NCBI GenBank assembly: GCA_044227505.1
Contig: JBGAWP010000001.1
Location: forward strand, 26,731-90,730
Direction of reading: 5' to 3'
Length of the DNA: 64,000 bases
DNA from: Chitinophagales bacterium
GTDB lineage: Bacteria; Bacteroidota; Bacteroidia; Chitinophagales; BACL12
How positions within the stretch are numbered: the first letter of the stretch is position 1; each line of letters begins with the position of its first letter. A model generated the notes under the pieces. The model saw only the letters and a program-made list of their open reading frames with translations, was not told the origin of the DNA and made no database searches. Position numbers and translations under genes: made by a program. This document shows positions 8,647 through 63,862 of the stretch, piece by piece.

Positions 8647-8756
8647 GGGATCGCGGATTTTGGATCGCGGATTTAAGGGGGATTTCGCGGATTGCGCGGA
8701 TTTTGGTTTTGGATCGCGGATTTTATGGGGATTTCGCGGATTGCGCGGATTTTGGG
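8647..8756. repeat. CGCGGATT-word tandem repeat (two units of about 45-49 bp plus a partial unit)
   Basis: GGATCGCGGATTTaagggGGATTTCGCGGATTGCGCGGATTTTGG at 8662-8706 recurs nearly identically at 8711-8755. A partial GGATCGCGGATTTT lies at 8648-8661. Confidence 0.9.
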
Positions 8757-25050: not shown

Positions 25051-25199
25051 CCTTCGAATCCACAGAGATTCCCTTCGGGTAACACTGCGGGGACACTTGG
25101 GATGCAGAACTCAGAACCCAGAACTCAGAACTCATCCTCCGAATCTACAGCGTTTCTTTATCCTACTTCCTATTTCCTACTTCCTATTTCCCATTCCCC
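25051..25199. repeat. Composite intergenic repeat: CGAATCCACAGAG hairpin module plus GAACTCA and CCTACTT/CCTATTT heptamer arrays
   Basis: CCTTCGAATCCACAGAGATTCCCTTCGGGTAACACTGCGGGGACACTTGGG lies at 25051-25101. Four GAACTCA/GAACCCA heptamers lie at 25107-25134. CCTACTT/CCTATTT units lie at 25162-25199. Confidence 0.9.
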
Positions 25200-26333: not shown

Positions 26334-26490
26334 TGGATAAATTTTCGTGAAGATAAGTCTTTTGAAGATTCGAAGGGAGAGGAATCGAACCTGCTTGCTA
26401 ACAGTGTCGGGCAAGGGGAGAAGGGGAAGGGTCTAAGGGGGAGTAGGAAGGAATGGGTGGGGAAGGGTTGAAAAGTATTAATCTTATAAA

Positions 26491-26810
26491 AATATCGAAT
26501 AAAGAACAAGGAATAAAGAACATTGATCGGATCGACAGCCCGGGAGATATTGCTCCGCAGTGAATCGGGATTAATATCCAATAATAATCAAAAAATAAAA
26601 AATATTAATCGGACTGACAACCCTGAAGATTTTTCTCGGTAATAAATCCTTATAATATCGAATAAAGAACAAGGAATAAAGAACATTAAACGGATCGACA
26701 GCCCGGGAGATTTTCCTCCGCGGTGAACCAGGAGGAATATCAAATAATAATCAAAAAATAAAAAATATTAATCGGATCTACAACCCGGAGTTTATTCCTC
26801 CGAAGTGAAC
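26491..26810 (+). repeat. Tandem duplication of a 163-bp unit, each unit built from two related sub-elements of about 80 bp
   Basis: AATATCGAATAAAGAACAAGGAATAAAGAACATT starts at 26491 and again at 26654. Each unit contains two cores resembling ATTAATCGGATCGACANCCCGGAGATTTTCCTCCGNNGTGAAC. One core has an AATATCGAATAAAGAAC... leader and the other an AATAATAATCAAAAAATAAAAAAT leader. Confidence 0.9.
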
Positions 26811-26840
26811 TCAGAACCCGAACTACTCCATAAACTTTGA

Positions 26841-26935
26841 GCTCCGAATCCACAGAGTTCGCTGCGCGTAACACTGTGGGGAAACGCTTGGGGTTGGTGA
26901 ACTCAGAACCCTGAACTCAGAATTCAGAACAGAAC
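26841..26935. repeat. Second copy of the CGAATCCACAGAG hairpin module plus a GAACTCA heptamer array
   Basis: GCTCCGAATCCACAGAGTTCGCTGCGCGTAACACTGTGGGGAAACGCTTGGGG lies at 26841-26893. GAACTCAGAACCCTGAACTCAGAATTCAGAAC lies at 26899-26935. The module order matches 25051-25134. Confidence 0.9.
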
Positions 26936-26970
26936 ATAGTTCGAAATTAATGTTTCAAGAGAAAAAAATC

Positions 26971-34547: not shown

Positions 34548-37277
34548 ATGGACAAGTTTTCATACATAGCAAACGCGGAACCTCAATATATAGAGAGTTT
34601 ATATCAGAATTATAAATCCGACCCGGCAAAAATTGATGGGGAATGGAAAAAGTTTTTCGAAGGATTTGACTTCGCGCAACAAAATTTTTCTTCTAACGGA
34701 CATTACGAAAATATCAGCTCATCAAATTTGGCGGCGGAATTAAAGGTGTACAATGCAATTTTGGCCTACCGCGAAAAGGGTCATTTGATCTCCAAAACAA
34801 ATCCCCTGAAACCGCGCAAAGACAGAAATGCACAGTTGAAATTGGAGCAATTGGGATTTAGGGAAAATGATCTGACCAAAAAATTTGGCGCAGGTGTGGC
34901 AGTGGGTATGGAAAATGCCACTTTGCAGGAAATTTTAGCGCATCTCGAAAATTGTTATTGCAGAAGTATCGGTTTTGAATACGACTATATTATCGATCCC
35001 ATTGAAAAAAAATGGTTTCAGGATAAAATAGAAATTAACGGAAAAAATATCACTTTTTCTGTTGATCAAAAAAAACGAATTCTAAAAAAATTAAATGATA
35101 CTGTTGTTTTTGAACAGTTTCTCGATAAAAAATATGTAGGTCAAAAAAGGTTTTCATTGGAGGGGGGAGAAACAACGATCCCGGCATTAGATGCAATTAT
35201 TACAAAGGGTGCGGCAATGGGAGTGGAGGAATTCGTTTTCGGAATGGCTCACCGTGGGAGATTAAATGTACTGGCAAACATACTTGGAAAAACATACGAA
35301 CAAATATTTAATGAATTTGAAGGAACAGCAATTCCGGACACTACGATGGGTGATGGCGATGTGAAATATCATCTTGGTTATTCATCGCAGGTGGAAACAA
35401 ATTCAGGAAAAGAAGTACATTTAAAATTAACACCAAATCCATCTCATTTGGAAGCAGTTAATCCCGTAATGCAGGGATTTGTAAGAGCTAAAACAGATGT
35501 TTTATACAATGAGGATTGGGATAAAATAATGCCTATAACTATTCACGGTGATGCTGCCATTGCGGGACAAGGAGTTGTTTACGAAGTATTACAAATGAGC
35601 AATCTGAAAGGTTACAGAGTTGGTGGAACTTTACACTTTGTAATTAATAATCAGATAGGATTTACAACTGATTTTGATGATGCTCGCACTAGTAATTATT
35701 GCACGAGTTATGCTGCAACAATTCAGGCTCCGGTAATTCATGTAAATGGTGATGATGCGGAAGCTGTAGTATTTGCCTGTGAATTAGCAGTGGAGTATCG
35801 CCAGGAATTTAATAAGGATATTTTTATTGATATGTTGTGTTACAGAAAACACGGACATAATGAAGGGGATGACCCGAAATACACACAACCTGCTCTATAT
35901 AAATTGATTGAAAATAAATTAAATCCACGAGAAATTTATGTGCAGAAATTATTGGCGAGTCACGATATTGATAAACAACTCGCAACAGAAATGGAAAAAG
36001 ATTTCTGGAATGAATTACAAAGCAGATTAGATCTCACCAAACAAAAACCACTTAAATATCAATATCAGGCTCCGGAAGAGGCGTGGAGAAAATTGAAAAA
36101 GATAATTGATATCGCAGTAGACTTTAGTAATACGCCGGAAACAAAAGTAGACAAAGAAAAAATTAAACAGGTTACGGATAATATGTTTAAAGTACCTGAA
36201 GGTTTTGTGAAGTTGAAAAAAATTGAAAAGTTATTCGAAACAAATAAAAAACTTTTAGCCGAAAATAAAATTGACTGGGCCCTAGCTGAATTAATTGCTT
36301 ACGGAACTATTTTATTGGATGGACAAGATGTTCGCATGAGCGGACAAGATGTAAGAAGAGGTACTTTTAGTCACCGTCATGCAGTATTGCGTGAAGAAAA
36401 TACAAATGAGGAATATATTCGTTTAAATCACCTCGCTGAAAAACAAGGTAAATTCAGAATTTATAATTCTTTATTGAGCGAATTTGGAGTGTTGGGATTT
36501 GAATTTGGTTACAGTCTTGCCTGCCCCGACCCATTGGTAATATGGGAAGCGCAATTCGGTGATTTTAATAATGGAGCGCAAACAATTATTGATCAGTTTA
36601 TATCAGCAAGTGTGAGCAAGTGGCAGCGTATGAGCGGACTGGTTATGTTGTTGCCTCATGGATATGAGGGGCAGGGCCCGGAACATTCCAGTGCTCGTTT
36701 AGAGCGATTTTTACAATTATGTGCCGAAGGAAATTTAATTGTTGCGAATATTACTACCCCAGCAAATTTTTTCCACATATTAAGACGACAACTTGCCTTT
36801 GATTTTCGCAGGCCTCTGATCATCATGAGTCCGAAAAGTTTGTTGCGTCACCCTTTGGTGCAATCTCCATTAACTGAATTATCTGAAGGTAAATTTGAAC
36901 CGCTGATAGGAGATGAGTATGCTGATAAGAAAAAAGTAAAACGCGTTATTTTATGCAGTGGAAAAATTTATTACGATCTGTATGAATATCAACAAAAAAA
37001 TGAAAGAAAGGACATCGCAATTTTACGGGTGGAACAATTATATCCTTTTCCGATGACCAGATTAAAAGAAGAATTAAATAAATATCCCGAGGCAGAATTA
37101 ATGTGGACGCAGGAAGAACCGAGAAATATGGGAGCATGGTTTTATATCTGGAATTTAATGGGCACTATGATCAAACAAAAGGTGAGCAGAAAATCAAGTG
37201 CATCACCGGCAACAGGTTTTGCGAAGATTCATGCTCAGGAGCAAGCGGATATTGTGGAGCAGAGTTTTAAGTTGTGA
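34548..37277 (+). CDS. sucA: 2-oxoglutarate dehydrogenase E1 component
   Basis: It has 909 aa. The N-terminus is SYIANAEPQYIESLYQNYKSDP. The ThDP-enzyme core includes GMAHRGRLNVLANILGK and HGDAAIAGQGVVYE. The C-terminal part includes WEAQFGDFNNGAQ. Confidence 0.95.
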   Translation: MDKFSYIANAEPQYIESLYQNYKSDPAKIDGEWKKFFEGFDFAQQNFSSNGHYENISSSNLAAELKVYNAILAYREKGHLISKTNPLKPRKDRNAQLKLEQLGFRENDLTKKFGAGVAVGMENATLQEILAHLENCYCRSIGFEYDYIIDPIEKKWFQDKIEINGKNITFSVDQKKRILKKLNDTVVFEQFLDKKYVGQKRFSLEGGETTIPALDAIITKGAAMGVEEFVFGMAHRGRLNVLANILGKTYEQIFNEFEGTAIPDTTMGDGDVKYHLGYSSQVETNSGKEVHLKLTPNPSHLEAVNPVMQGFVRAKTDVLYNEDWDKIMPITIHGDAAIAGQGVVYEVLQMSNLKGYRVGGTLHFVINNQIGFTTDFDDARTSNYCTSYAATIQAPVIHVNGDDAEAVVFACELAVEYRQEFNKDIFIDMLCYRKHGHNEGDDPKYTQPALYKLIENKLNPREIYVQKLLASHDIDKQLATEMEKDFWNELQSRLDLTKQKPLKYQYQAPEEAWRKLKKIIDIAVDFSNTPETKVDKEKIKQVTDNMFKVPEGFVKLKKIEKLFETNKKLLAENKIDWALAELIAYGTILLDGQDVRMSGQDVRRGTFSHRHAVLREENTNEEYIRLNHLAEKQGKFRIYNSLLSEFGVLGFEFGYSLACPDPLVIWEAQFGDFNNGAQTIIDQFISASVSKWQRMSGLVMLLPHGYEGQGPEHSSARLERFLQLCAEGNLIVANITTPANFFHILRRQLAFDFRRPLIIMSPKSLLRHPLVQSPLTELSEGKFEPLIGDEYADKKKVKRVILCSGKIYYDLYEYQQKNERKDIAILRVEQLYPFPMTRLKEELNKYPEAELMWTQEEPRNMGAWFYIWNLMGTMIKQKVSRKSSASPATGFAKIHAQEQADIVEQSFKL

Positions 37278-37287
37278 GGGAGGAGTG

Positions 37288-37418
37288 GCAGTCGCAGTCG
37301 CAGTCGCAGTCGCAGTCGCAGTCGCAGTCGCAGTCGCAGTCGCAGTCGCAGTCGCAGTCGCAGTCGCAGTCGCAGTCGCAGTCGCAGTCGCAGTCGCAGT
37401 CGCAGTCGCAGTCGCAGT
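37288..37418. repeat. Perfect hexanucleotide microsatellite (GCAGTC)21 plus a partial unit
   Basis: I counted it directly: 126 bp of uninterrupted GCAGTC at 37288-37413, then GCAGT. It starts 11 nt after the sucA stop and ends 64 nt before the sucB start. Confidence 0.98.
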
Positions 37419-37481: not shown

Positions 37482-38750
37482 ATGATAATTGAATTAAAAG
37501 TGCCGACAATTGGCGAATCTATAAATGAGGTTACACTTTCGAAGTGGCTTGTAAGTGATGGAGATATTGTTACTATTGATCAATCGCTATGTGAATTTGA
37601 AAGTGATAAGGCAACCTTGGAATTTCCGGCAGAGAAAGCAGGAAAAATTACTTTGCTTGTTAAAGAAGAAACAGAATTAAAAATAGGTGATGTAATTGCT
37701 ACCTTGGATACAGATGCTGTGCCCGCAGCAACAGCTGAAACAAAAAAGGAAGAAAAAGTTATAAAAGAAGAAGTGGTAGAAAAGAAAGAGGTAAAGGAAG
37801 GAAAGATTGTTGAAACAGTAAAAGAAGAAAAGAAAATTGCAGCAGAGGAACACGCCCCAGTTATTTCTCCATTAGCATCCACAATTGCAAAGGAAAATAA
37901 AGTGGATATTCAAAAATTATCAGGTACCGGAAGTGGCGGAAGAATTACGAAGGAAGATGTATTAAATTACATTAAAAGTGGAACTGATGGGAAGGAAATT
38001 GTAAAAGGTTTGCGAAAAAATTTACGCACACAGCATGAAGAAAAAGTATCCAAACTCCGCAAAACAATTGCAAAAAGATTGGTAGGAGTTAAAAATGAAA
38101 CCGCCATGCTCACCACCTTTAATGAAGTGGATATGAGCGCAATTATGGCAATTCGCGATAAACACAAAGTGAATTTTGAAAAGAAATTCGGAGTTGGATT
38201 GGGATTTATGTCGTTTTTTGTAAAAGCATGTTGTAATGCATTACAGGAATTTCCTAGTGTAAATGCATATTTTAATGAGGATACCATACTATTTAATGAC
38301 TATTGTGACATATCCATTGCAGTATCTACTCCAAAAGGTCTTGTAGTACCCGTAGTGCGCAATGCCGAAAGTATGAGTATGGCCGACGTAGAATTAACAA
38401 TTAAATCATTAGCAGTTAAAGGGCGTGACGGAACTTTGAGCTTGGAAGAAATGCAAGGCGGTACCTTTACTATAACCAATGGAGGAGTATTCGGATCATT
38501 AATGAGCACACCAATCATCAACGCACCACAAAGTGCGATTTTGGGCATGCATAAAATTCAGGAAAGGCCTATTGCTTTAAACGGACAAGTTATAATAAGA
38601 CCAATGATGTATCTTGCATTGAGTTATGATCACAGAATTATCGATGGAAAAGAATCGGTGAGTTTTTTGGTGAGGGTGAAGGAACAATTAGAAAAGCCGG
38701 AGAATTTATTGTTTGGTTTTGATAATATTGAATTGTTGCTGGAGTTATAA
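37482..38750 (+). CDS. sucB: Dihydrolipoyllysine-residue succinyltransferase (2-oxoglutarate dehydrogenase E2)
   Basis: The lipoyl domain is [18 protein letters not shown]. An E/K/A-rich linker and an E3-binding segment follow. The catalytic motif is [11 protein letters not shown]. Confidence 0.95.
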
Positions 38751-44143: not shown

Positions 44144-45235
44144 TTATTTTACTTTTAAAAAGTTATTACACAAAATTAACCCATCTCTCTGACTTTCGAT
44201 ATATGTTTTCAACTCCGCATATCCTGTCTGTGCATATTTCAGGAAACCGGAACCCTGCGCATAAATACTGTTCAGGTTCAACTTTTGGGTAAGATAATAT
44301 CCGTCCAAAAAGTTTTTAACTCCACCGCTGATTATCACCTCTCTGCATTTCAGATCGTTCCCTAATGTTGCAGCGGCTTGGTTTACAAATGCAACCATCT
44401 CCTCTGCTGTATGTCCTATATACGCTAATTCATTAAACACAGATCCTTCGGCATTGTTCGAACGCAACATTTCCAATTTTGCAAAATTAGTGCCGCCATA
44501 TGCGCCAAAATCAAGAGCAGCAATAGGTAGCTGCAACAAAGCTTTCACACTTTCAGGTCCCATTCCCTGGCCTACTTCCTTCACAATAAGGGGAAAATCA
44601 ACCTCAAGTAGCAATTGTTGTAAGGTTTCCAAAGGTGATTTTGTAAAGTTATCGCCCTCAGGTTGTAACCATTCCTGAAATGGATTAATATGAACTATAA
44701 GTCCGTCAGCATCAAGCGATTGCACCATTTTTTTAATGGCATCTACCGTATTATCGGCGAGGTTATGTTCTATCTGCGCAATTCCAAGGTTGGCAAAAAA
44801 GGGCAGGTTCTTTCCAATGATGGGCCTTAAATTAAAATCATCAAAATACTTGTCATCGTTCAACAGACGCCTGCAGGAGCCCAAACCCATGCCCATTCCG
44901 AATTCATTACATGCTCTTGCTAAATTGCGATTTATCACCCCGGCTTGCTCCGTTCCACCCGTCATACTGCTTATCCAGATTGGGTTTGCGAGCTTTTTCC
45001 CTAAAAATTCTTTCTCTAATGAAACTGTGTGATGTCCGCTCAAAACGGGTTCGTAGTAAAACCTCATATCATTTTCAAGACTTCCCGTCTGACTCTTGAG
45101 TGCCAGTTCGATATGGTCTTGTTTGCGTTGTTCTGAAGTTGGATCGGACAAGTGGAACTTTATTGTTGGGTGCAAAGGTAAGAAAATGAGTAATGAGTTA
45201 TGAGTGATGAGATGATCCGAGAAGGCCGGGTGCAT
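44144..45235 (-). CDS. fni: Type 2 isopentenyl-diphosphate delta-isomerase (FMN-dependent)
   Basis: Motifs are RKQDHIELAL, SSMTGG, FANLG, VKEVGQGM and FGAYGGTNFA. The start is uncertain. The first approximately 17-20 codons are read out of the AATGAGT heptamer array, and an in-frame TTG lies at about 45175. Confidence 0.85.
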   Translation of the reverse strand: MHPAFSDHLITHNSLLIFLPLHPTIKFHLSDPTSEQRKQDHIELALKSQTGSLENDMRFYYEPVLSGHHTVSLEKEFLGKKLANPIWISSMTGGTEQAGVINRNLARACNEFGMGMGLGSCRRLLNDDKYFDDFNLRPIIGKNLPFFANLGIAQIEHNLADNTVDAIKKMVQSLDADGLIVHINPFQEWLQPEGDNFTKSPLETLQQLLLEVDFPLIVKEVGQGMGPESVKALLQLPIAALDFGAYGGTNFAKLEMLRSNNAEGSVFNELAYIGHTAEEMVAFVNQAAATLGNDLKCREVIISGGVKNFLDGYYLTQKLNLNSIYAQGSGFLKYAQTGYAELKTYIESQRDGLILCNNFLKVK

Positions 45236-45291
45236 TTACTCCTAACTTATGACTCGTGACTGGGTGAGTGGTGAGTAGTGAATAGTGAGCT
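45185..45291. repeat. Heptamer arrays at the 5' edge of fni (AATGAGT type and GTGAGTG type)
   Basis: AATGAGT AATGAGT TATGAGT GATGAGA lie at 45185-45212. GACTCGT GACTGG GTGAGTG GTGAGTA GTGAATA GTGAGCT lie at 45251-45291. Confidence 0.9.
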
Positions 45292-45477
45292 TACTCCGAG
45301 TTTGCGGAATAGTTTTACTCCGCCCGTACGCTGTGGTTTGGTGTTTTTCACCAACCACTGCTGGGCGAAGTGAGATTAATGGAGTATGGAGATTTAGCTA
45401 TTATTGAGTCATCCAATTTCTAAACAGATACTTTGTGCTTTCTTGAAGGACTAAAATTTTCATTCCACCTATTATCC

Positions 45478-45573
45478 CTCTCATTACTCAAAACTCATTT
45501 CTCATCCACAGACCCACCCACTCACCCTTTCCCTTCCCACTCACTCCTCACCACTCACCACTCCCCCCTCACC
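45478..45573. repeat. Heptamer-type arrays upstream of the M3 peptidase gene (ACTCATT and CACTCAC words)
   Basis: The sequence reads CTCTCATTACTCAAAACTCATTTCTCATCC ... CCCACTCACCCTTTCCCTTCCCACTCACTCCTCACCACTCACCACTCC. CTCACCACTCAC at 45547-45558 is the exact reverse complement of GTGAGTGGTGAG at 45264-45275. Confidence 0.9.
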
Positions 45574-45612
45574 ATGAATATCTTCTTAAATTTGCATCTT
45601 CAATAAAAAACC

Positions 45613-47310
45613 ATGCATTTTTCAGAATATAGTTATACGAGGCCTGATATTGATTCTTTGCGGGGGCGATTTTTAGAGTTGGTAAAAACATTTGAGGCGG
45701 CGGAAAATGCCGAAGTTCAAATGGATATAATGGATAAAATAAATCTGTTGCGTTCAGAATTTGATACGAGTTATCAGTTGTGTTCTATTCGTCATTCCAT
45801 TGATACAAGAGATGAATTTTACAACAAGGAGCAGGATTTTTTTGATGAGAATTTGCCGCAGTTTGAGGAGGTAACAAGTATTTATTATAAAGCATTAATA
45901 AATTCTAAATTTCGCAGTGAACTGGAAGAAAAATTCGGAAAACAATTATTTCGAATTGCAGATATGCAATTGCGTGTTTTTAAACCGGAGATAATTAATG
46001 ATCTCATTACCGAAAATAAATTAAGTACAGAATATCAGGAATTAATTGCAAGTGCACTTATCAATTTCGATGGTGCCGATAGAACTATTGCAGAGATGGT
46101 TCCTTATTTGCGCTCAACAGATAGAAATGTAAGGCAAGAAGCATCAACTGCACGATGGAATTTTTTTGTAGATAATGAAAATGCTTTCGACAGAATATTT
46201 GATGAATTGGTAAAAACGCGTCATCAAATAGCATTGGAATTGGGATTTAAAAATTTTGTAGAAGTAGGATATCTCCGCATGTTGCGAAGCGATTATACTG
46301 CTGATATGGTTGCGGGATTTCGCGAGCAGGTTTTACAACAAATTGTTCCCATGGCATCGGAATTAAAAAAAGAACAAGCAAAACGACTTAATCTAAACAC
46401 ATTAAAATATTACGACGAACCATTATTATTTAAAAGCGGAAATGCAGATCCAAAAGGTTCACCTGAATGGATAATTAATAACGGAAAAAAAATGTATTCA
46501 GAATTATCCTCTGAAACTAAAGAGTTTTTTAATTTCATGCTCGACCACGACCTCATGGATCTTGAGGCAAAAAAAGGTAAGGCCGGGGGTGGATATTGCA
46601 CTTATATTTCAGGATATAAATCGCCTTTTATTTTTTCAAATTTTAATGGAACGAGCGCAGATATTGATGTACTTACACATGAGGTGGGACATGCATTTCA
46701 GGTGTATATGAGTCGCGGGTTTGAAGTGCCGGAATATTATTGGCCAACAAGTGATGCTGCAGAAATTCACTCCATGAGCATGGAATATTTTGCATATCCC
46801 TGGATGGATGAATTTTTTAATGAAGATGCAGATAAATATCGTTATGCACATTTAGTGGAGTCGCTTTTATTTTTACCTTATGGTGTTGCAGTGGATGAAT
46901 TTCAACATCATATTTATGAAAAACCAAGTTTATCTCCTACCGAAAGAAAATCACTTTGGCGCAACATAGAAAAAAAATATCTTCCGCTAAAAGATTATGA
47001 TGATAATAATTATTTAAATGCCGGAGGATTCTGGCAAACACAGGCTCATATTTATCAATCGCCGTTTTATTATATCGATTATACCCTTGCACAAATGTGT
47101 GCATTTCAATTTTGGTTAAAAGCCAAAAAAGATAATGTTGCAGCATTACACGATTATGTTCAATTATGCAAAGCAGGCGGTAGCCGATCCTTTTTAGAAT
47201 TAGTAGAATACGCCAACCTTAGATCACCATTTGATGAAAATGTATTTTCGGATATTGTTGTTGCGTTGGATGGCTATTTGAAGGGGGTGGATGAAGAGAA
47301 ATTGGGATGA
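45613..47310 (+). CDS. M3 family oligoendopeptidase (PepF-like)
   Basis: The zinc motif HEVGHAFQ is followed by a downstream E (AAEIHSMSME). It has 565 aa and a PepF-like overall pattern. Confidence 0.8.
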   Translation: MHFSEYSYTRPDIDSLRGRFLELVKTFEAAENAEVQMDIMDKINLLRSEFDTSYQLCSIRHSIDTRDEFYNKEQDFFDENLPQFEEVTSIYYKALINSKFRSELEEKFGKQLFRIADMQLRVFKPEIINDLITENKLSTEYQELIASALINFDGADRTIAEMVPYLRSTDRNVRQEASTARWNFFVDNENAFDRIFDELVKTRHQIALELGFKNFVEVGYLRMLRSDYTADMVAGFREQVLQQIVPMASELKKEQAKRLNLNTLKYYDEPLLFKSGNADPKGSPEWIINNGKKMYSELSSETKEFFNFMLDHDLMDLEAKKGKAGGGYCTYISGYKSPFIFSNFNGTSADIDVLTHEVGHAFQVYMSRGFEVPEYYWPTSDAAEIHSMSMEYFAYPWMDEFFNEDADKYRYAHLVESLLFLPYGVAVDEFQHHIYEKPSLSPTERKSLWRNIEKKYLPLKDYDDNNYLNAGGFWQTQAHIYQSPFYYIDYTLAQMCAFQFWLKAKKDNVAALHDYVQLCKAGGSRSFLELVEYANLRSPFDENVFSDIVVALDGYLKGVDEEKLG

Positions 47311-47312
47311 AT

Positions 47313-47565
47313 GGGACGCGGGAATCGGGACACGGAAATCGGGAAAACAAAGGATGGAGAAAAAGAGGATCGCGGATGACGCTGATTTAGCGGATTTAAA
47401 AGGATAAATTTTTTTAATAATGCAGATTAATTATTAATTAGAATATAGAGTTTTCAATTTACGATAAGTACAGTCCGTCGCGGCGGACGAGCCATCTTTT
47501 AACAACGGACTTTAGCCCGTGGGTTAATAAAAAGAGGAACCTGACTAACGCGGTCAGCAGGCAGG
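47313..47565. repeat. Composite intergenic repeat block (GGGAATC heptamers, CGGATTT words, GTCC..GGAC hairpins, divergent CCTG..CAGG palindrome)
   Basis: GGGACGC GGGAATC GGGACAC GGAAATC GGGAAAA lie at 47313-47347. GATGACGCTGATTTAGCGGATTTAAAAGGATAAATTT lies at 47375-47411. The hairpin GTCCGTCGCGGCGGAC is followed by CATCTTTTAACAACGGACTTTAGCCCGTGGG at 47493-47523. CCTGACTAACGCGGTCAGCAGGCAGG lies at 47540-47565. Confidence 0.9.
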
Positions 47566-47782: not shown

Positions 47783-48517
47783 GTGAAATATAATTTTAAT
47801 AAATATCTAATACTGTTTTTGATCATTGGATTTTTTCCTGTGATTGTTGATGCGCAAACTAATTCGAGAGATTCATCGATATTAAAAGCTACAAGCATTG
47901 CCAAACGTGTTATTAGTGCAATGGGTGGCGAAGAAAATTTTGAGCAGACCAAATATATAGGCTGGACATTTTTTGGGAGTAGAAAATTAATTTGGGATAA
48001 GGAAAATGATAGGTTGAGGGTTGATTATCTTAAAAAGAAATTAACAATTATTACGTCTTTAAATTCTGATGAAACTAAATTATATATGGATGATATCGAA
48101 ATCACTAATACAGATTCCCTTATCAAATATAGTACAAGAGGAAAAAGAATTTGGGCAAACGATTCCTATTGGCTCCTGATGCCTTTTAAATTGTTGGATG
48201 AAGGGGTGAATTTAAAATTTGTAAAAGACACACTTTTAAATACTGTAAATACCTCCATCCTCGAAATGACCTTTGAAAATGTTGGTTTTACCCCTGAAAA
48301 TAAATATTGGATCTACGTTGATATGAATTCCTATTTAATAACCCAATGGGATTTCTACAATACCTATACTGACATAACACCCGAATTTTCCAATACCTGG
48401 GGCGACTACAAAAAATACGATAAATTACTGATCTCCGGTGACCGCGGCGTAGAAGGAAAATTGGAAAATATTTATGTGGTGGATGAAATGCCTTCAGCAA
48501 TATTTGAAACGAAATAA
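47783..48517 (+). CDS. Hypothetical secreted protein (244 aa)
   Basis: It has a GTG start and a signal peptide (KYLILFLIIGFFPVIVDAQ). I recognise no motif. Related repeat modules flank it on both sides. Confidence 0.5.
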   Translation: MKYNFNKYLILFLIIGFFPVIVDAQTNSRDSSILKATSIAKRVISAMGGEENFEQTKYIGWTFFGSRKLIWDKENDRLRVDYLKKKLTIITSLNSDETKLYMDDIEITNTDSLIKYSTRGKRIWANDSYWLLMPFKLLDEGVNLKFVKDTLLNTVNTSILEMTFENVGFTPENKYWIYVDMNSYLITQWDFYNTYTDITPEFSNTWGDYKKYDKLLISGDRGVEGKLENIYVVDEMPSAIFETK

Positions 48518-48605
48518 GATTTGGGATGAGGGTTTCGGTACAAGTGAAACAGGGGAACAAATAAATGAATAAAAAAGGGAACCCGCCAGTGGGCGAACAG
48601 GAGCT

Positions 48606-48978
48606 GATGACGCTGATTTGTCGGATTTAAAAGGATAAATTTAAAGGGGATATAATTAGAAATTTGAGATGAATTTTTCGGCTATAAATAATCAAAAAGT
48701 CCTGAAAGGACGGCACATCTTGTAACAACGGACTTTAGTCCGAGGTAACTAGTCCAAAATGTGACTCAGGACACAGGAAACAGGACAACTTTGACTCAAC
48801 TTGAAAATTTATAATGCCAAGTAAAATTTAAATTAGCATATAAAATTTTCAATCAAAAACGAACTCCCCTTTTTCAACCTTTCCCAACCCTTCCTTCCTT
48901 TTTTAACCTTAGAACCTTACCCTTCGAATCTTCTCCCTTCTCCCTTCGAATCTTCCATGACTTCTCCCTTCGAATCTT
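48606..48978. repeat. Composite intergenic repeat block (second copy of the 47375-47523 modules, CAGGACA heptamers, CCCTTCGAATCTT x3)
   Basis: GATGACGCTGATTTGTCGGATTTAAAAGGATAAATTT lies at 48606-48642. The hairpin GTCCTGAAAGGAC is followed by CATCTTGTAACAACGGACTTTAGTCCGAGGT at 48716-48746. CAGGACA CAGGAAA CAGGACA lie at 48767-48787. CCCTTCGAATCTT occurs at 48920, 48942 and 48966, and the last copy overlaps the response-regulator stop codon. Confidence 0.9.
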
Positions 48979-49687
48979 ATACTACAGCCTCCTCCTCCGT
49001 ATTCAACCTAAAACCATTCCCATGAATATTCACGATCTCCAATGTTGGATCTTCTTTTAAATATTTGCGGAGTTTGGTTACGAATACATCCATGCTGCGG
49101 GCTGTGAAATAATCATCCCTTCCCCAAATTTGTTTGAGAGCTTCTTCGCGATAAACGATGTCGTTTACTTTCATGCAGAATAAACGCAATAATTCTGCTT
49201 CCTTAGGTGAAAGTTTTGCATCGGAGCCATCTGTTTTGAGAAGGCGGGTTTTGTAATTAAAATGATATTTTCCTATCGTAAATTCTTTTTGCTGATTATT
49301 GGTGCGCAATTTTCCTCCGCGTTTTAAAATTGCGGCAATGCGATACAATAGTTCTTCGCTGTTAAATGGTTTGGTGATATAATCATCAGCACCCACTTTA
49401 AATCCTTCCAAAACATCTTCCTGTAATGTTTTTGCTGTTAGGAAAATTACAGGCATTTCCGGATTTATACGTTTAATTTGTGCAGCCAACGTGAAGCCAT
49501 CTTTTTTAGGCATCATTACATCCAGCACACATAAATTAAATTCTTCTTTGAAAAAAAGGTCCTCGCCTTTTTCGCCATCAGTAGCAAGGCGAACATCGTA
49601 GCCACTCATGCTTAAATAATCTTTTAAAACGGCTCCGAAATTCGGATCGTCTTCCACTAATAAAATTTTTGTTTTTAACTCTTCCAT
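48977..49687 (-). CDS. OmpR-family response regulator (receiver plus winged-helix domains)
   Basis: Receiver motifs are LVEDDPNF, VLDVMMPKKDGF and LTAK. The C-terminal trans_reg_C-like segment is LSPKEAELLRLF...FVTKLRKYL. Confidence 0.9.
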   Translation of the reverse strand: MEELKTKILLVEDDPNFGAVLKDYLSMSGYDVRLATDGEKGEDLFFKEEFNLCVLDVMMPKKDGFTLAAQIKRINPEMPVIFLTAKTLQEDVLEGFKVGADDYITKPFNSEELLYRIAAILKRGGKLRTNNQQKEFTIGKYHFNYKTRLLKTDGSDAKLSPKEAELLRLFCMKVNDIVYREEALKQIWGRDDYFTARSMDVFVTKLRKYLKEDPTLEIVNIHGNGFRLNTEEEAVV

Positions 49688-53104: not shown

Positions 53105-55690
53105 ATGCTTAAGAATCTTTACTTACTGTTTCTTTCCTTAATTCTATGTACTATCGTTAACTCCCAGGTTGTGATTAAAGGCCACGTATCTGAATACGAC
53201 GGAGGTGCACTTATAGGTGCCACCGTAGTTGAAAAGGGCACTACCAATGGCACCTTGGCCGATGTTGACGGTAATTTTACCATCACGCTCAGCAGCACTC
53301 CTGCAACGCTCGTGTTTACCTATGTGGGTTATGCTACACAGGAGATCGAGGTTACTGCACAAACTACCTTGCGTGTAATATTGGAGGCAGATTCCTATAG
53401 TTTAAGCCAGGTGGAAGTGCTGGGAACCAGAAGTTTGAACAGATCTTCCACCGAAAGTATGGTACCCATTGATATAATTGATGTTAGTGCATTTACCGCT
53501 GCTAATGGTCAATTGGATATGAATCAGTTATTACAATATGCTGCTCCTTCCTTTAATTCCAATCGGCAGAGCGGAAGTGATGGTGCCGATCATATTGACC
53601 CTGCAACATTAAGAGGATTGGGTCCGGATCAAACATTAGTTCTTGTAAATGGAAAAAGATATCATCAATCATCTCTTATAAATATTTTTGGTACTCGCGG
53701 TAGAGGAAATACAGGAACTGATTTAAATACAATACCTGCTGCCGCAATTGAAAGAATTGAAATTTTACGCGATGGTGCATCTGCACAATATGGATCAGAT
53801 GCAATTGCGGGGGTAATCAATATTGTTTTAAAAGATAATGTAAATGAATTTACCGGCAATGTAAATACCTCCGGAAATCTCGCACAATATAATTTCGACC
53901 AGGGTTCCATCGATGGGCAAAATTTGCAAATAAATGGAAATTATGGATTTGATATTGGTGAAAAAGGCTTTCTGAATGTAACAGCAGATTATCATTATCG
54001 CGGACATACAAATCGCGCAGAATTTACCGGCGATTTTCCCGATAATGTGGATGTGCGCAATCAGTATGGTGATGCTGAGGTTACAGATTTTTCAGCTTGG
54101 TTCAATATGAAATATCAGTTAAACGGAAATGCACACTTTTATGCTTTCGGAGGATATAACACTAGAGATGTTGCCGCTTATGCTTATACAAGAGATGCTG
54201 GCAGTCCGAGAAATGTTACTTCACTTTACGAAAAGGGATTTGATCCCGTTATTGCATCCATTGTAACAGATAAGTCTGTTTCAGGAGGAATTCGCGGTGA
54301 TATTCATGGTTGGGATGTTGATTTTAATAATACCTTCGGAGCAAATAAAATGCATTATTATGGAAGAGAAACATTAAATGCTTCTATGGGTGATGCATCT
54401 CCAACTGAATTTGATGACGGCGGATTTTCATTAGCGCAAAATTCAACTAGTCTTAATTTTACAAAATATTTTGCCAGCGTTTTACAGGGATTAAATATTG
54501 CTTATGGTGCGGAATATCGCATTGATAATTATCAGATCTTTGCAGGCGAAGAAGCTTCATGGTATAATTACGGAGCAGTATTAATTGATGGTGAAGATAC
54601 CATTGGCAGACCTGGCGGTTCACAAGGGTTTCCGGGCTTTCAACCAAAAGATGTAACCAATGAATTCCGCTCTAATCTCGGAGCTTATTTTGATGTGGAA
54701 GCAAATTTTACGGAACAATTTTCTGCGGATGCTGCCTTGCGTTATGAAAATTATTCTGACTTCGGAAATACTGTGAATGGAAAATTAGCGGCACGATTTG
54801 CAATAAATGAAAAATTTGCATTCAGAGGATCTTTTAGCACAGGTTTCAGAGCACCATCTTTAGCACAAATTTATTTTAGTTCCACTTACACAAATGTGGA
54901 AGCAGGGGTAATTATTGATGAGGTTATTGCGGATAATAAAAGCACTATTGCCCGTCAACTCGGTATACCCGCATTAAAACAGGAAGAAAGTATGAATGGC
55001 AGTTTTGGATTTACGGCAAAACCAATGACCGGATTATCCTTAACGATAGATGGATATTATATCACCATAAATGACCGTATCGTATTAACCGATGGGTTCG
55101 GAACAGATGATGATATTATCGGCGGAATTCTATCTGATCTTAATGTTGGTTATGCAAGATTTTTTACCAATGCAGTGGACACAAAAACAATGGGTGTGGA
55201 TGTTATTCTTGCTTATAAAATTTATATGCAGGAAAATGCCCTCACATTTACCTATGCCGGAAATTTTAATCAGATGACAATTGAAAATATTTATACCAAC
55301 GATCTGCTAACCGGAAAGGAAGATAATTATTTCAGTTTGCGTGAGCAATATTTTTTAATTGCAAGTGCTCCACCTGCTAAAATGAATTTAACAGTAGAAT
55401 ACTCCACGAAAAAATTAAATGCAACATTGCGCGCTAATTATTTCGGCGAGATTAATTTAATTAATTACAGTGGATTGGAATATACTTATTCAGCTAAAAC
55501 AACAATTGATGCAAGTATAGGTTACGATATCACTAAAAATTCACATCTGACTATAGGTGCTGCAAACTTATTAAACACCTATCCTGATCCAACAGATCCA
55601 TACGAAACAGAAACCGGTGGTGCCTGGGATGCAGTGCAAATGGGATATAATGGAACGGCGGTGTTTGCGAAACTTGGGTTTAAGTTTTGA
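53105..55690 (+). CDS. TonB-dependent outer membrane receptor with an N-terminal carboxypeptidase-regulatory-like domain
   Basis: It has a signal peptide. The CarbopepD_reg-like segment is VIKGHVSEYDGGALIGATVVEKGT..TDVDGNFTI. Plug motifs are LRGLGPDQTLVLVNGKRY and IERIEILRDGASAQYGSDAIAGVINIVLK. The C-terminus is aromatic (LGFKF). Confidence 0.9.
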   Translation: MLKNLYLLFLSLILCTIVNSQVVIKGHVSEYDGGALIGATVVEKGTTNGTLADVDGNFTITLSSTPATLVFTYVGYATQEIEVTAQTTLRVILEADSYSLSQVEVLGTRSLNRSSTESMVPIDIIDVSAFTAANGQLDMNQLLQYAAPSFNSNRQSGSDGADHIDPATLRGLGPDQTLVLVNGKRYHQSSLINIFGTRGRGNTGTDLNTIPAAAIERIEILRDGASAQYGSDAIAGVINIVLKDNVNEFTGNVNTSGNLAQYNFDQGSIDGQNLQINGNYGFDIGEKGFLNVTADYHYRGHTNRAEFTGDFPDNVDVRNQYGDAEVTDFSAWFNMKYQLNGNAHFYAFGGYNTRDVAAYAYTRDAGSPRNVTSLYEKGFDPVIASIVTDKSVSGGIRGDIHGWDVDFNNTFGANKMHYYGRETLNASMGDASPTEFDDGGFSLAQNSTSLNFTKYFASVLQGLNIAYGAEYRIDNYQIFAGEEASWYNYGAVLIDGEDTIGRPGGSQGFPGFQPKDVTNEFRSNLGAYFDVEANFTEQFSADAALRYENYSDFGNTVNGKLAARFAINEKFAFRGSFSTGFRAPSLAQIYFSSTYTNVEAGVIIDEVIADNKSTIARQLGIPALKQEESMNGSFGFTAKPMTGLSLTIDGYYITINDRIVLTDGFGTDDDIIGGILSDLNVGYARFFTNAVDTKTMGVDVILAYKIYMQENALTFTYAGNFNQMTIENIYTNDLLTGKEDNYFSLREQYFLIASAPPAKMNLTVEYSTKKLNATLRANYFGEINLINYSGLEYTYSAKTTIDASIGYDITKNSHLTIGAANLLNTYPDPTDPYETETGGAWDAVQMGYNGTAVFAKLGFKF

Positions 55691-55945
55691 AATGAGTAAT
55701 GAGTTATGAGCCTGCCTGCCGACTGCGTCAGCGTCAGGCAGGTAATGAGTGTGATCCGGGTAGGATTATGCTCACCACTCACCATTTACGTAATAGTCGC
55801 AGTCTCAGTAAGCAGTTTTAAGCCAGCTGAGTCTTACTTCGCATTCACGTATGAGTAATGAGCCTGCCTGCCGACTGCGTCAGCGTCAGGCAGGTAATGA
55901 GTTTGATCCGAGTAGGAGTAAGCTCACTACTCACCACTCACTATT
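55691..55945. repeat. Two direct units of about 95 bp, each carrying AATGAGT words, a 32-nt GC-rich palindromic element and CACTCAC words
   Basis: Unit 1 spans 55691-55790 and unit 2 spans 55850-55945. The identical 32-mer CCTGCCTGCCGACTGCGTCAGCGTCAGGCAGG lies at 55711-55742 and 55863-55894. Next to them a 13-bp-stem hairpin at 55936-55973 is formed by inverted CACTCAC-type words. Confidence 0.95.
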
Positions 55946-55989
55946 CACAAAGGGTGAGTGGTGAATAGTGAGTAGGGAGTGACTCTATC

Positions 55990-56700
55990 ACCGGAAGATA
56001 TACCTTCGAACCAAGCTGAATAAATAACCAATAACAATCAAAAAATAAAAAACATTTATCGGATCGACTACCCGGAAGTCCCTCCTTCGAAGGGAACCTA
56101 TAGAACAATAATATCGAATACCGAACAAGGAATAAAGAATATTAATCGGATTGACATCCCGGATGATTTTCCTCCGAAATGAAACTTTCAATGTAAACGA
56201 AAAATATACTCCCCTATAGGGTAGGGGGCCCTTCGGATCGACACACTGGAGATTTTCCTCCGTAATAAACCCCTTCAACTCCTTCAACCAATCTCACCTC
56301 AAAGTTTCAAGTAGAATCGGAATTCCCTCTGTAATGAACCTTGCGAACCCAATTTAATATCGAACCTGCCTGCCGGTAGGCAGGTAAAGAACAAGGAATA
56401 AAGAACCTGTCTGCCGGCAGTCGCCAGGCAGGCATCTAACATGTCGACAATCCTGAAGATTTTCCTCCGCAACAAACCAAATTAATATCCAATAACAATC
56501 AAGAAATAAAAAATAACAATCGGATTCTCTCCCGGATGATTATCCTCCGTAACAAACCCCTTTAACCCCTTCAACTCCTTCAACCAATCTCGCCTCATGG
56601 TTTCAGGTAGAACCGGAGTCTCCCTCCGTAATGAACTCAGAACCTGCCTGACGCTGACGCAGTCGGCAGGCAGGCCCCGAACCCAGAACTGAAACATGCA
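55990..56700. repeat. Array of the approximately 80-bp modular element (same family as 26491-26810) with nested GC-rich palindromes and an approximately 295-bp higher-order repeat
   Basis: Element copies lie at about 56027-56098, 56107-56186, 56231-56271, 56355-56477 and 56482-56558. The unit CCTTCAACTCCTTCAACCAATCTC(A/G)CCTCA..GTTTCA.GTAGAA.CGGA...CCCTC.GTAATGAAC occurs at 56269-56340 and 56566-56636. Palindromes lie at 56365-56384, 56406-56432 and 56643-56674. Confidence 0.9.
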
Positions 56701-56765
56701 GTGATCGACGCAGGAGATCTACTACATGTCAGAACCCCGAACTTTTTTCTCCCCCCTTTAGTTTA

Positions 56766-56773
56766 TACCTTTG
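56766..56773 (+). promoter_or_regulatory. Candidate -7 box (TAccTTTG) for the NifU-like gene
   Basis: TACCTTTG matches the TAnnTTTG consensus and lies 16 nt upstream of the ATG at 56789. I see no clear -33 TTTG. Confidence 0.3.
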
Positions 56774-56788
56774 CAAAAAGAAAAGACT

Positions 56789-57373
56789 ATGAGCAATTTT
56801 ATCGTAAGCATATATACAGAAGGAACCCCGAACCCTGACAGTTTGAAATTTGTGATGAATAAAATGTTGTTGACCGGACAAAGTGTCGACTTCGACAGAG
56901 GAGATAATGTGAGTTATGCGCCTTTGGCGGAGGAATTATTTAACAAATTCGACTTTATTAAGGGTGTATTTATCATGAATAACTTCGTAACGGTTAGAAA
57001 AGAGGCGGAAATTGATTGGTTTGAAGTGAAATCGGGTATCAGTGAATTTATCAAAAATTATGTGAGCGAGGGAAAAACCGTAGTTGGTGAAATTCCTGAA
57101 ATTGATAATATCAGTGGCGAACTGGATGGCGATGCGATCATTGCCAAAATAAAATCCATGTTGGACCAATATGTGAAACCAGCCGTTGAAATGGATGGTG
57201 GTGCAATACAGTTCAAATCTTTCGACAATGGAATTGTTACATTGATGATGCAAGGTTCATGCAGCGGATGTCCTTCTTCTACCGTAACACTAAAATCTGG
57301 AATTGAAGGTTTATTAAAACGTATGGTTCCCGAAGTGAAAGAAGTGGTTGCGGAAAGTGCAGAAATAATTTAA
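56789..57373 (+). CDS. NifU-family Fe-S cluster assembly/carrier protein (Nfu_N plus NifU C-terminal domain)
   Basis: The Nfu_N-like N-terminus is IYTEGTPNPDSLKFVMN. The C-terminal motif is GSCSGCPSSTVTLKSGIE. I prefer the ATG at 56789 over the TTG at 56771. Confidence 0.85.
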   Translation: MSNFIVSIYTEGTPNPDSLKFVMNKMLLTGQSVDFDRGDNVSYAPLAEELFNKFDFIKGVFIMNNFVTVRKEAEIDWFEVKSGISEFIKNYVSEGKTVVGEIPEIDNISGELDGDAIIAKIKSMLDQYVKPAVEMDGGAIQFKSFDNGIVTLMMQGSCSGCPSSTVTLKSGIEGLLKRMVPEVKEVVAESAEII

Positions 57374-63411: not shown

Positions 63412-63585
63412 TTACTTTGGAGATTATTGATTATGGTTGAAAAAGTCAATAGTCAACAGTGGGCAGTTTGTAGCATTGGAGATTATTGTTTCGGTTGAAG
63501 TTTTTTTACACCCGTAAACTTGTATTATTTGACGTGCAAAACGATGTTTTATTTCCTCCCGAAACTTTACCAAATCATTAAATAA

Positions 63586-63862
63586 GGAGAGAGGAGAGAG
63601 GAGTTTAAATTTCTTGCGAAATTTTGTAAGACAACACCGTATGATTTAATGATTGCTAATACCCTAAACCATACATTTAAAACCCTCGCTAAGAGCGAGA
63701 ATCACACTGTATCCAACGAAATATTAAAATACCACCCTTTGTTTTCCTGCACTTAAAAAGGAGAAAGGAGTGAGGAGAAAGGAGTTTAAATTTCTGGCGA
63801 AATTTTATTGGGTGGTACGTTAGTGAGGCTTTCGCTCTTAGCGAAGGTCTCACTAACGGTAC
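63586..63862. repeat. Direct repeats about 175 bp apart plus long hairpins built from an inverted TCGCTAAGAGCGA word
   Basis: GGAG-rich words followed by GGAGTTTAAATTTCT(T/G)GCGAAATTTT occur at about 63586-63636 and 63761-63810. The hairpin CTCGCTAAGAGCGAG lies at about 63686-63700. A hairpin with a stem of about 22 bp, GTACGTTAGTGAGGCTTTCGCT/AGCGAAGGTCTCACTAACGGTAC, lies at 63815-63862. Confidence 0.85.

Follow-up and report, generated by a model that had tools for sequence, protein, structure and literature searches.

A probable lineage-specific mosaic of unstructured direct-repeat units and REP-like palindromes in a long intergenic spacer of uncultured Chitinophagales

In Neisseria, dRS3 and CGTC-1 palindromes are interleaved with other repeat families to form mosaic regions (PMC3733652). 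The BrickBuilt elements of Porphyromonas gingivalis, always intergenic and up to 991 nt long, consist of a leader, tandem bricks and a tail (PMC4596501). Heptanucleotide repeats, described as LSSRs, cyanobacterial STRR sequences or TAACTGA repeats, occur in Beggiatoaceae, cyanobacteria and some Bacteroidetes; their binding by CspB has been discussed, with a speculative link to cold shock (PMC4679880). Here we describe a block of repeats (55691-56773) that fills the spacer between a TonB-dependent receptor gene and an Nfu/NifU gene (nfu) in a 64-kb stretch of an uncultured Chitinophagales genome (the whole stretch is called the window). This block is probably a lineage-specific mosaic of direct-repeat units that are constrained in sequence and unstructured, that are reshaped by unequal recombination and slippage, that were secondarily invaded by palindromes resembling repetitive extragenic palindromes (REPs), and that are dispensable for the flanking genes. 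An initial annotation of this DNA had held that no Bacteroidota repeat of such architecture was described, which was too strong, as BrickBuilt is analogous (PMC4596501).

The spacer measures 1098 nt (55691-56788) and separates the receptor gene (53105-55690; Pfam Plug and TonB_dep_Rec_b-barrel), which ends in TGA, from nfu, whose ATG is at 56789. Among the window's 43 spacers, which have a median of 76 nt and exceed 200 nt in ten cases, none is longer; the runners-up, of 640 and 599 nt, are repeat-laden too. Both the unusual length and the lack of a credible open reading frame (ORF) had been noted initially and stand: none of six mechanically called ORFs, including those on the minus strand at 55988-56287 and 56482-56697, has a Pfam match, and in an independent assembly (L002) the spacer, near-identical at 99.5%, received no gene call. 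Likewise, the four repeat layers of the initial annotation were each present where it had placed them. Its picture of nested modules was sound, whereas its phrase 'built entirely' from repeats went too far, since about 87% of the block aligns with some other repeat copy; 74% aligns with sequence outside the block. The spacer is a gene-free patchwork of several small repeat families. Because four other assemblies carry its sequence (L001, L002, L004 and L005; 98-99.5% identity), with L002 alone covering it gene to gene, the block is real and not an assembly artefact.

The backbone of this patchwork is a unit of ~80 nt, composed of an A-rich leader of ~33 nt with residual 7-nt periodicity and of a core. 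Leaders fall into two subtypes, t1 (AATATCGAATAAAGAACAAGGAATAAAGAAC) and t2 (AATATCCAATAACAATCAAAAAATAAAAAAT); the aligned core reads ATTAATCGGATCGAC-N-CCCGGRR-GATTTTCCTCCG-N4-GAAC, or in short form ATCGGATCGAC...GATTTTCCTCCG...GAAC. Clear copies (nhmmer E 1e-16 to 4e-22) begin at 56023, 56110 and 56484 and correspond to unit E (t2, 56023-56101, leader CAATAACAATCAAAAAATAAAAAA; E 8e-19, covariance model 92.8 bits), unit F (t1, 56110-56188, leader GAATACCGAACAAGGAATAAAGAA; E 4e-22, 96.2 bits) and unit J (t2, 56484-56561; E 1e-16). Weaker or interrupted copies lie at 56233-56272, within unit G (56189-56272), where the hairpin word CTCCCCTATAGGGTAGGGGGCCC (56211-56232) stands in place of the leader ahead of the unit core, and at 56355-56480, where alignment with uninterrupted copies reveals a t1 unit, unit I, split by two palindromes. 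A partial core, CCGGAAGATATACCTTCGAACC (55986-56012), precedes the t2-t1 dimer, an arrangement that recurs in contigs L011 (199-nt alignment, 73%) and L027. A third kind of unit, the H type, is 72 nt long, has a (AACCCCTTC)n leader and an ending (...GTTTCAAGTAGAATCGGAATTCCCTCTGTAATGAAC) of the same kind as that of the ~80-nt units; its two copies, H (56268-56339) and K (56564-56636), are 89% identical. All these units lie on the plus strand, which within the block holds GAAC 16 times and GTTC not once. In the window, a degenerate 25-nt core pattern has six matches; 100 shuffles yielded none.

The same family builds a second array in the window, at 26.4 kb, as had been recognised initially for 26491-26810. 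Its four plus-strand units, A (t1), B (t2), C (t1) and D (t2), span 26491-26814 (nhmmer E 2e-17 to 8e-22), and Tandem Repeats Finder (TRF) reports them both with a period of 82 nt (3.9 copies) and as a 163-nt t1+t2 dimer (1.8 copies). The related claim that the element is dispersed also proved right: there are two loci in the window, others in different organisms, and a third locus next to a glycyl-tRNA synthetase (GlyRS) gene that L005 implies. In that contig the GlyRS gene is joined to variant E/F units and then to sequence identical to the nfu spacer; be it a chimeric join or a real rearrangement, such a junction implies a third locus with a long near-identical stretch. Unit-to-unit identity spans 65-91%, with adjacent cores at 70-80%; copies at different loci are 65-82% identical, and within one genome they resemble each other no more than they do copies of another genome.

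Comparison with a sister species catches the processes at work directly: gain and loss of whole units, slippage and precise insertion of palindromes. The initial annotation had proposed a search of related genomes for further copies, and units are indeed present in the orthologous spacers of the sister species as well as in other uncultured sources. Contig L027 carries the ortholog of the nfu-locus spacer (925 nt, same unit types; receptor gene 3' end 94.5% identical), and L025 that of the 26.4-kb locus (AI-2E gene 85.7% identical, third codon positions 65%). For nfu, the proportions of synonymous and nonsynonymous differences between window and L027 (pS and pN) are 0.61 and 0, with a synonymous divergence (dS) of 1.27 over 85 codons; the AI-2E gene gives pS 0.52 and dS 0.90 over 156 codons. 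Pairwise alignment pairs M1a (a module near the start of the block) and units E, F, H, I, J and K one to one with L027. Only L027 has an H unit and a ~148-nt t2-core/H/t1-leader stretch, a unit-level indel by which it is longer at unit J; only the window has the stretch 56159-56246, the tail module and the 152-nt duplication that yields module M1b (duplicated stretch ~55826-55992). The two also differ by 9 nt through slippage. Among the assemblies of the window species, the sole length polymorphism is a 9-nt tandem duplication of AACCCCTTT (56555-56563, +), which the window has and L001, L002, L004 and L005 have not. The second array matches its L025 ortholog unit for unit, and L025 has an extra hairpin-bearing module and a different tail module.

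Not all parts of the units have diverged alike. Orthologous leaders are identical at 238 of 263 positions (90.5%; unit E 91%, unit J 32/33), orthologous cores at 68-83%, H-type units at 81-88% (unit H 87.5%, unit K 81%) and a GA-rich module beside the second array at 83-96%. Across all sources, leaders of types t1 and t2 hardly vary in an alignment of 28 distinct copies. No RNA structure accompanies this conservation. Each core had initially been credited with a short GGAG/CTCC hairpin, a reading that failed: the hairpin's stability does not exceed that of shuffled sequence (z 0.2 and -0.4); RNAalifold gives seven weak pairs (-1 kcal/mol) without covariation for 11 copies and no consensus structure for the 28; and these 28 copies, from at least six sources, contain no compensatory pair, their paired cells amounting to 82.9% against 83.4% in shuffles. 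The outer helix of the core is broken in some copies (CGGA to CAAA) without compensation. Shuffles, the count of zero compensatory pairs and the missing consensus fold together rule out the core hairpin as a conserved structure. Because the leaders are ~90% identical while synonymous sites differ by 52-61%, and because covariation is absent, it is the linear sequence that is maintained; to judge from these alignments, such maintenance would act at the level of element propagation or of the host.

Other roles for the units as RNA or signal elements fared no better. Rfam returned no match at gathering thresholds for the whole window, and in E-value mode only noise for the spacer (E 0.07 and 8), so that the block corresponds, as initially suspected, to no catalogued RNA family; tRNA and transfer-messenger RNA searches found nothing either, TTCGAA-containing modules included. 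The Bacteroidota -7 box, TAnnTTTG, is missing from both strands of 55691-56765 and 26415-26970, so that the units do not look like discrete small-RNA genes with a promoter of this type. Between the receptor gene and the nfu promoter there is no plus-strand terminator, the sole terminator-like site of the block lying on the minus strand, and the units were rejected as terminators on that ground. By eye, neither promoter spacing of the extracytoplasmic-function type nor CsrA-type GGA motifs are conserved across the aligned copies.

The block further contains five GC-rich palindromes of 20-32 nt, all of which start with CCTG and end with CAGG. A 32-nt version, CCTGCCTGCCGACTGCGTCAGCGTCAGGCAGG, occurs three times: at 55711-55742 (+; DNA hairpin of -10.7 kcal/mol, z -2.7), identically at 55863-55894 (+) and, as a 100% reverse-complement match, at 56643-56674 (-). 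Unit I holds a 20-nt version, CCTGCCTGCCGGTAGGCAGG (56365-56384, +; z -2.9), and a 27-nt version, CCTGTCTGCCGGCAGTCGCCAGGCAGG (56406-56432, +; z -3.2). The three lengths share their ends and resemble internal-deletion variants of each other; as DNA hairpins they reach -7 to -10.7 kcal/mol and fold better than shuffles (z -2.7 to -3.2). Four are in plus and one in minus orientation, 21-750 nt apart with other repeats between them. At unit I, the sequence continues unbroken across ...ATCGAA/TAAAG... and ...AAAGAA/CAT... in four paralogs without interruption, of which one comes from another genome, and in the L027 ortholog (leader flanks 9/10 and 21/21 identical); the 20- and 27-nt palindromes were therefore inserted precisely and without target-site duplication. 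Empty sites exist in L027 for all five: the first 32-nt copy is missing from a diverged M1a ortholog, and the third, which sits directly after CTCAGAA in a (CAGAACY)n heptamer tail, is missing also from the paralogous tail of L025. A further palindrome, 26 nt long (26390-26415), inserted after GAATCGAA in the GA-rich module ahead of the second array (26365-26474, +), again has an empty site in L025, and no target duplication is seen at 56365, 56406 or 26390. The 5' flank of insertions is GAA in six of eight cases and GAG in two, in GAA-rich surroundings and with a small sample. The initial count of five palindromes was correct; its view of them as a layer of the same construction was not, for the empty sites show the GC palindromes to be later insertions.

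Insertion beside a short motif without duplication is typical of IS200/IS605-type elements, to which systems of REPs and REP-associated tyrosine transposases (RAYTs) are related. The palindromes carry neither the GTAG nor the CGTC head of catalogued REP superfamilies, CGTC occurring only inside the 32-nt version. Because of the missing head, and because no transposase was seen among the ORFs scanned, we call them REP-like and not REPs. Two observations adjoin these insertions. In L025 (~590-610 in minus-strand reading; t1 unit 447-540) a different hairpin of ~20 nt, TCAGCCTGGGAGCTGA..., interrupts a t1 unit at the same AAAGAA/CAT position as the 27-nt palindrome of unit I, which suggests that this position may be an insertion hot spot. 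A hexamer array of 22.5 copies of AGTCGC (99% matches, 37284-37418) lies between the ORF 34548-37277 (+) and a 2-oxoacid dehydrogenase E2 gene (37482-38750, +); the 27-nt palindrome also contains its word GCAGTCGC, the inverted 32-nt palindrome contains GCAGTCGG, and AGTCGCAGTC lies at 55794-55803.

The block is missing from more distant relatives that share the gene order. In L016-L019, L022 and L023, which share ~73% nucleotide identity, the receptor-nfu spacer is 111-288 bp long and unit-free; a hairpin followed by a T-run, as in an ordinary terminator, directly follows the receptor gene in L017, L018, L019 and L023. Neither do units occur in the 271 bp upstream of nfu in L020/L021. Synonymous sites of nfu are saturated in the four contigs for which they were computed (L016, L017, L019 and L020). 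As these relatives manage with short unit-free spacers and ordinary terminators, the block is not needed at the nfu locus. The only element common to their spacers and that of the window is the nfu promoter, with its -7 box TACCTTTG at 56766-56773 (+), the sole TAnnTTTG of the spacer. A 22-nt stretch that contains the box and ends at 56775 is identical in L016, and the surroundings of the box are conserved in L027; no other non-repeat part of the spacer is conserved, and the box marks where the spacer functionally ends on its 3' side. Upstream of nfu in L020 (1-271) and L016 (9725-10000) there is a different hairpin repeat, with the words AACCTCTGAGGT and GACCTCACAGGTT, and lineage-specific repeats appear to have landed at this intergenic site more than once.

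Judged by NifU homologues and by how the records of syntenic contigs are named, the window belongs to uncultured Chitinophagales of glacier-fed streams and similar habitats. The repeat family is present in at least five other sequence sources, all from uncultured Bacteroidota or Chitinophagales. When species-representative genomes were scanned with an exact pattern, true units turned up at two loci of the Bacteroidota metagenome-assembled genome (MAG) GFS_13507 and degenerate copies in a Chitinophagales MAG, the locus of which was recovered again, from microbial mats, by the same kind of scan over Joint Genome Institute (JGI) metagenomes. A scan of viral contigs gave no match, nor did plasmid and phage collections at blastn sensitivity. 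A protein-database search with a spurious minus-strand ORF of the block returned three unit-rich contigs (L025, L026 and L027), after which a covariance model gathered 30 unit copies, 28 of them distinct. The exact-pattern counts are lower bounds, the pattern being too strict for L026, where units read AATAATAATCGG. Short-read contigs tend to break here: L001, L004, L024, L020/L021 and L026 end inside repeat blocks, L024 being the only other contig for the 26.4-kb array, and 17 of 21 NifU-carrying contigs are under 5 kb. Such repeats break up metagenome assemblies, and MAGs will contain too few of them.

Around the units, heptamer repeats abound. TRF lists 25 period-7 rows in the window, often right after stop codons; such repeats are frequent in other unit-carrying genomes too, but not in more distant relatives. 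Heptamer microsatellites cap the unit array. The block has tandem arrays at 55691-55710, 55923-55948 and 55953-55981, with ~20 more elsewhere in the window, and a lag-7 autocorrelation of 0.32 over a background of ~0.26. The first array, 2.9 copies of AATGAGT (+), begins directly after the receptor stop codon and its words recur at 45185-45211. It runs into module M1a (55699-55789, +), made of heptamers, the palindrome and TAATGAGTGTGATCCGGGTAGGATTATGCTCACCACTCACC, which is 91-93% identical to M1b (55851-55941, +), part of the ~152-nt segmental duplication. Complementary arrays of (CTCACTA)n and (GGTGAGT)n then form a long hairpin at 55923-55981 (-18.3 kcal/mol as DNA, z -7.5), the arrays being listed by TRF. 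At the other end, the tail module (56676-56745, +) consists of (CAGAACC)-type heptamers around CATGCAGTGATCGACGCAGGAGATCTACTACATG (56695-56728); over the 64 nt of 56679-56742 it matches the array tail of L025 with 93.8% identity.

Further shared modules populate other spacers of the window. That at 45185-45574 contains M1 pieces without the palindrome and, formed by heptamer arrays, two pairs of inverted repeats that cross each other (45186-45212 with 45479-45505, 45262-45289 with 45540-45567; arms of 27-28 nt, 86-89% complementary). The GA-rich module (GAAGATTCGAAGGGAG...GGGTTGAAAAG) forms its own family, with copies at 26365-26474 (+), at 48860-48980 (-, a reverse-complement paralog) and in L005 (~1790-1920); its pyrimidine strand lies directly upstream of a gene start in two cases, the AI-2E transporter and GlyRS. 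Also near the second array, a module CGAATCCACAGAG...GTAACACTGyGGGGA...CTTGGG with (GAACTCA)n heptamers occupies two neighbouring spacers (25053-25134 and 26846-26930), and at the orthologous position L025 has a different tail module in its place. A non-coding element of ~170 nt, with conserved blocks GATGACGCTGATTTnnCGGATTTAAAAGGATAAATT and CATCTTkTAACAACGGACTTTAGyCCG, occurs twice (47340-47560 and 48585-48790; 77% identical) around an ORF of 244 aa without Pfam match (47783-48517), and a related tandem repeat of GCGGATTT words is found at 8648-8756. Some modules reach other genomes. The hairpin word of unit G is shared with L013, L025 and L026; in L013 (780-1000; a microbial-mat Chitinophagales MAG, the locus being shared with L007, L012 and L015) it occurs as CTCCCCTATGGGGCAGG in a 75-nt tandem repeat of 2.5 copies. 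The repeat GGAGAGAGGAGTTTAAATTTCTTGCGAAATTTTG... lies twice near the window end (63583-63647 and 63756-63806) and also in MAG GFS_13507 (L011, 5555-5627), and GGGACGCGGGAATCGGGAC words at 47310-47357 recur in L011 at 5521-5568.

The comparisons show the block changing through several processes. Whole units are gained and lost between similar units, short motifs slip (the 9-nt indel) and segments duplicate (152 nt). GC-rich palindromes of 20-32 nt (CCTGCCTG...CAGGCAGG) insert precisely without target-site duplication; they are presumably REP/PATE-like elements, mobilised in the form of single-stranded hairpins by an enzyme whose gene lies elsewhere in the genome. The units may travel from locus to locus in composites 200 nt or longer, via recombination or some mobilising activity. 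The maintained linear sequence would most simply be a protein recognition site, read either by the propagation machinery of the elements or by a DNA- or RNA-binding protein of the host. Several points weigh against this account. Conservation of the leaders, about five-fold below the synonymous rate, exceeds what purely neutral 'junk' would predict. The identity of only 65-82% between loci argues against recent bursts of unit transposition. No transposase or RAYT-like gene was present among the ~27 ORFs scanned, of roughly 50 in the window. And the apparent preference for GAA targets comes from eight insertions in GAA-rich sequence. In E. coli and Salmonella, the family consensus of REP sequences is likewise conserved at a dS of about 1; since such selfish sequences show the same pattern, leader conservation is by itself no proof of a host function.

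The strongest competitor, which we consider improbable, is that the arrays benefit the host as protein-binding sites on DNA or single-stranded nucleic acid, kept by selection as an insulator, a titration array or a topological element. Leader identity of ~90% beside a flanking pS of 0.52-0.61, near invariance of both subtypes in at least five organisms and the retention of arrays at the same two loci by the sister species all speak for it, and the absence of structure fits recognition of a linear sequence. Unit orientation is not fixed, as would suit a role at the DNA level: at the nfu locus and in L010 and L011 the units run in the sense of the upstream gene, and at the 26.4-kb locus they are antisense to the genes on both sides. 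The binder might be a nucleoid-associated protein, or else cold-shock proteins with their affinity for T-rich heptamers; the t1 leader, taken as its complement, gives TTCTTTA-TTCCTTG-TTCTTTA, CspB binding of heptamers has been discussed (PMC4679880), and record names point to cold habitats (glacier-fed streams, microbial mats). The cold-shock link is, however, a mere resemblance. Distant relatives keep the same gene order without arrays and with normal terminators, unit number and order vary between sister species, and conservation of this kind is known also from the selfish REP sequences of E. coli and Salmonella. The specific proposition that t1/t2 arrays are host-maintained, structure-independent tandem binding sites for a cold-shock, nucleoid or insulator protein in cold-freshwater Chitinophagales strikes us as doubtful; if true, the arrays would be a new kind of cis-acting chromosomal element and not selfish repeats.

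Less likely again, and rather remote in our estimate, is a role in RNA, in which transcripts reading through from the terminator-less receptor gene would be processed into small unstructured RNAs or form a long 3' untranslated region (UTR), with invariant CU-rich UUUUCCUCCG motifs that would pair with purine-rich (GGAGG-like) targets or titrate an RNA-binding protein. TCCTCCG is indeed among the best conserved core positions of the 28-copy alignment, the plus-strand terminator present in relatives is missing here, and the units are sense in three of the four loci with a clear upstream gene. The fourth, at 26.4 kb, with units antisense to both neighbours, speaks against such a role, as do the lack of promoter boxes inside the units, of any conserved structure or terminator to define RNA ends, and of an Rfam match; because orientation towards neighbouring genes is not fixed, a purely 3'-UTR role is disfavoured.

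We regard it as very improbable that the block is a single large invertible segment or a MITE-like element (MITE, miniature inverted-repeat transposable element), bounded by the 56-nt inverted repeat 55695-55750/56635-56690 around the 32-nt palindrome. Its arms are 86% complementary (100% in a 34-nt core) and pair in the minimum-free-energy fold, and similar GAAAT/GAAAC words stand at both ends. Yet L027 has the unit array and none of these palindromes, which makes the terminal repeats secondary insertions; together with the single orientation in all four other assemblies, this largely refutes the idea, and there is neither a bounding inverted repeat at the 26.4-kb array nor an adjacent recombinase gene among the ORFs scanned. 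A degenerate CRISPR array or an array of type III antitoxin repeats, for all the regular ~80-nt spacing and the unit ends in ...GAAC/GAAAC, a decayed gene and an assembly artefact have next to no probability and are refuted by anatomy (the inter-core 'spacers' are two conserved subtypes, and adjacent cores are only 70-80% identical), by the lack of nearby cas or toxin genes among the ORFs scanned, by relatives with no gene between receptor gene and nfu and mechanical ORFs without Pfam match, and by the presence of the block in four other assemblies, in L002 from gene to gene.

An uncultured cold-freshwater lineage of Chitinophagales has its own toolkit of intergenic repeats, which expands some spacers five- to ten-fold and breaks short-read assemblies. 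Its conserved, unstructured leaders pose the question of which protein reads them, in element propagation or in the chromosome or RNA biology of the host. The families are of practical use in MAG curation, in flagging spurious ORFs and in strain typing. Nothing known about bacterial repeats is overturned.

Set beside described systems, the block shares much with bacterial interspersed mosaic elements (BIMEs; PMC2817692, PMC3733652, PMC3116915): both are extragenic non-coding composites of a few short motif families, with GC-rich imperfect palindromes of 20-40 nt, here in an AT-rich genome; in both, a family consensus is conserved between species near synonymous saturation, and clusters are dispensable at single loci. 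In the block, however, the backbone is formed by direct units of ~80 nt without dyad symmetry and not by alternating palindromes, and there is no regular alternation of REPs with conserved linkers. The five palindromes are short, GC-rich, extragenic and imperfect, as REPs are, but they lie mostly in one orientation, hundreds of nucleotides apart, without a GTAG or CGTC head and without a RAYT gene among the window ORFs scanned; the closely spaced inverted pairs that define REPINs are absent. MITEs are marked by terminal inverted repeats and target-site duplications, neither of which delimits these arrays. BOX elements are predicted to fold stably and behave like MITEs. Those of Streptococcus pneumoniae (boxA-boxB(n)-boxC; PMC3049150) are comparable as modular intergenic repeats with a variable number of internal modules; the block differs in its lack of a stable or covarying fold, and in sequence and phylum. 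The near-identical repeats with unique spacers of CRISPR, and cas domains among the ORFs scanned, were not found, nor was the covariance-model match or covariation of a structured non-coding RNA.

The Neisseria mosaics (PMC3733652) are likewise large intergenic regions built from units of 50-150 nt of several families plus short palindromes, although here the palindromes are sporadic, later and do not bracket the units, and the sequences are unrelated and from another phylum. With heptanucleotide repeats (PMC4679880), for which polymerase slippage is the accepted origin, the block shares abundant intergenic period-7 tandem repeats and the 7-nt periodicity of its leaders; there a single heptamer is amplified, whereas here at least 15 heptamers are embedded as caps or leaders of larger conserved units. 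BrickBuilt (PMC4596501), too, is found in Bacteroidota, in a single lineage, and is intergenic, modular, ~1 kb long and variable in unit number between loci and strains, with spurious ORFs called over it by annotation pipelines. It differs in its 23-nt bricks without subtypes, set between leader and tail, where the block has ~80-nt units of three types, and in its small terminal inverted repeats and promoter activity, where the block has neither bounding repeats nor promoter boxes; the two, set side by side by description and not by sequence, would be analogous and not homologous. Failing the defining tests of REP/REPIN, BIME, MITE, BrickBuilt, CRISPR and structured RNA, the block is best filed as a member of no named family. 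In our best reading, it is a lineage-restricted, uncatalogued mosaic of the kind represented by BIMEs, the Neisseria intergenic mosaic elements (NIMEs) and BrickBuilt.

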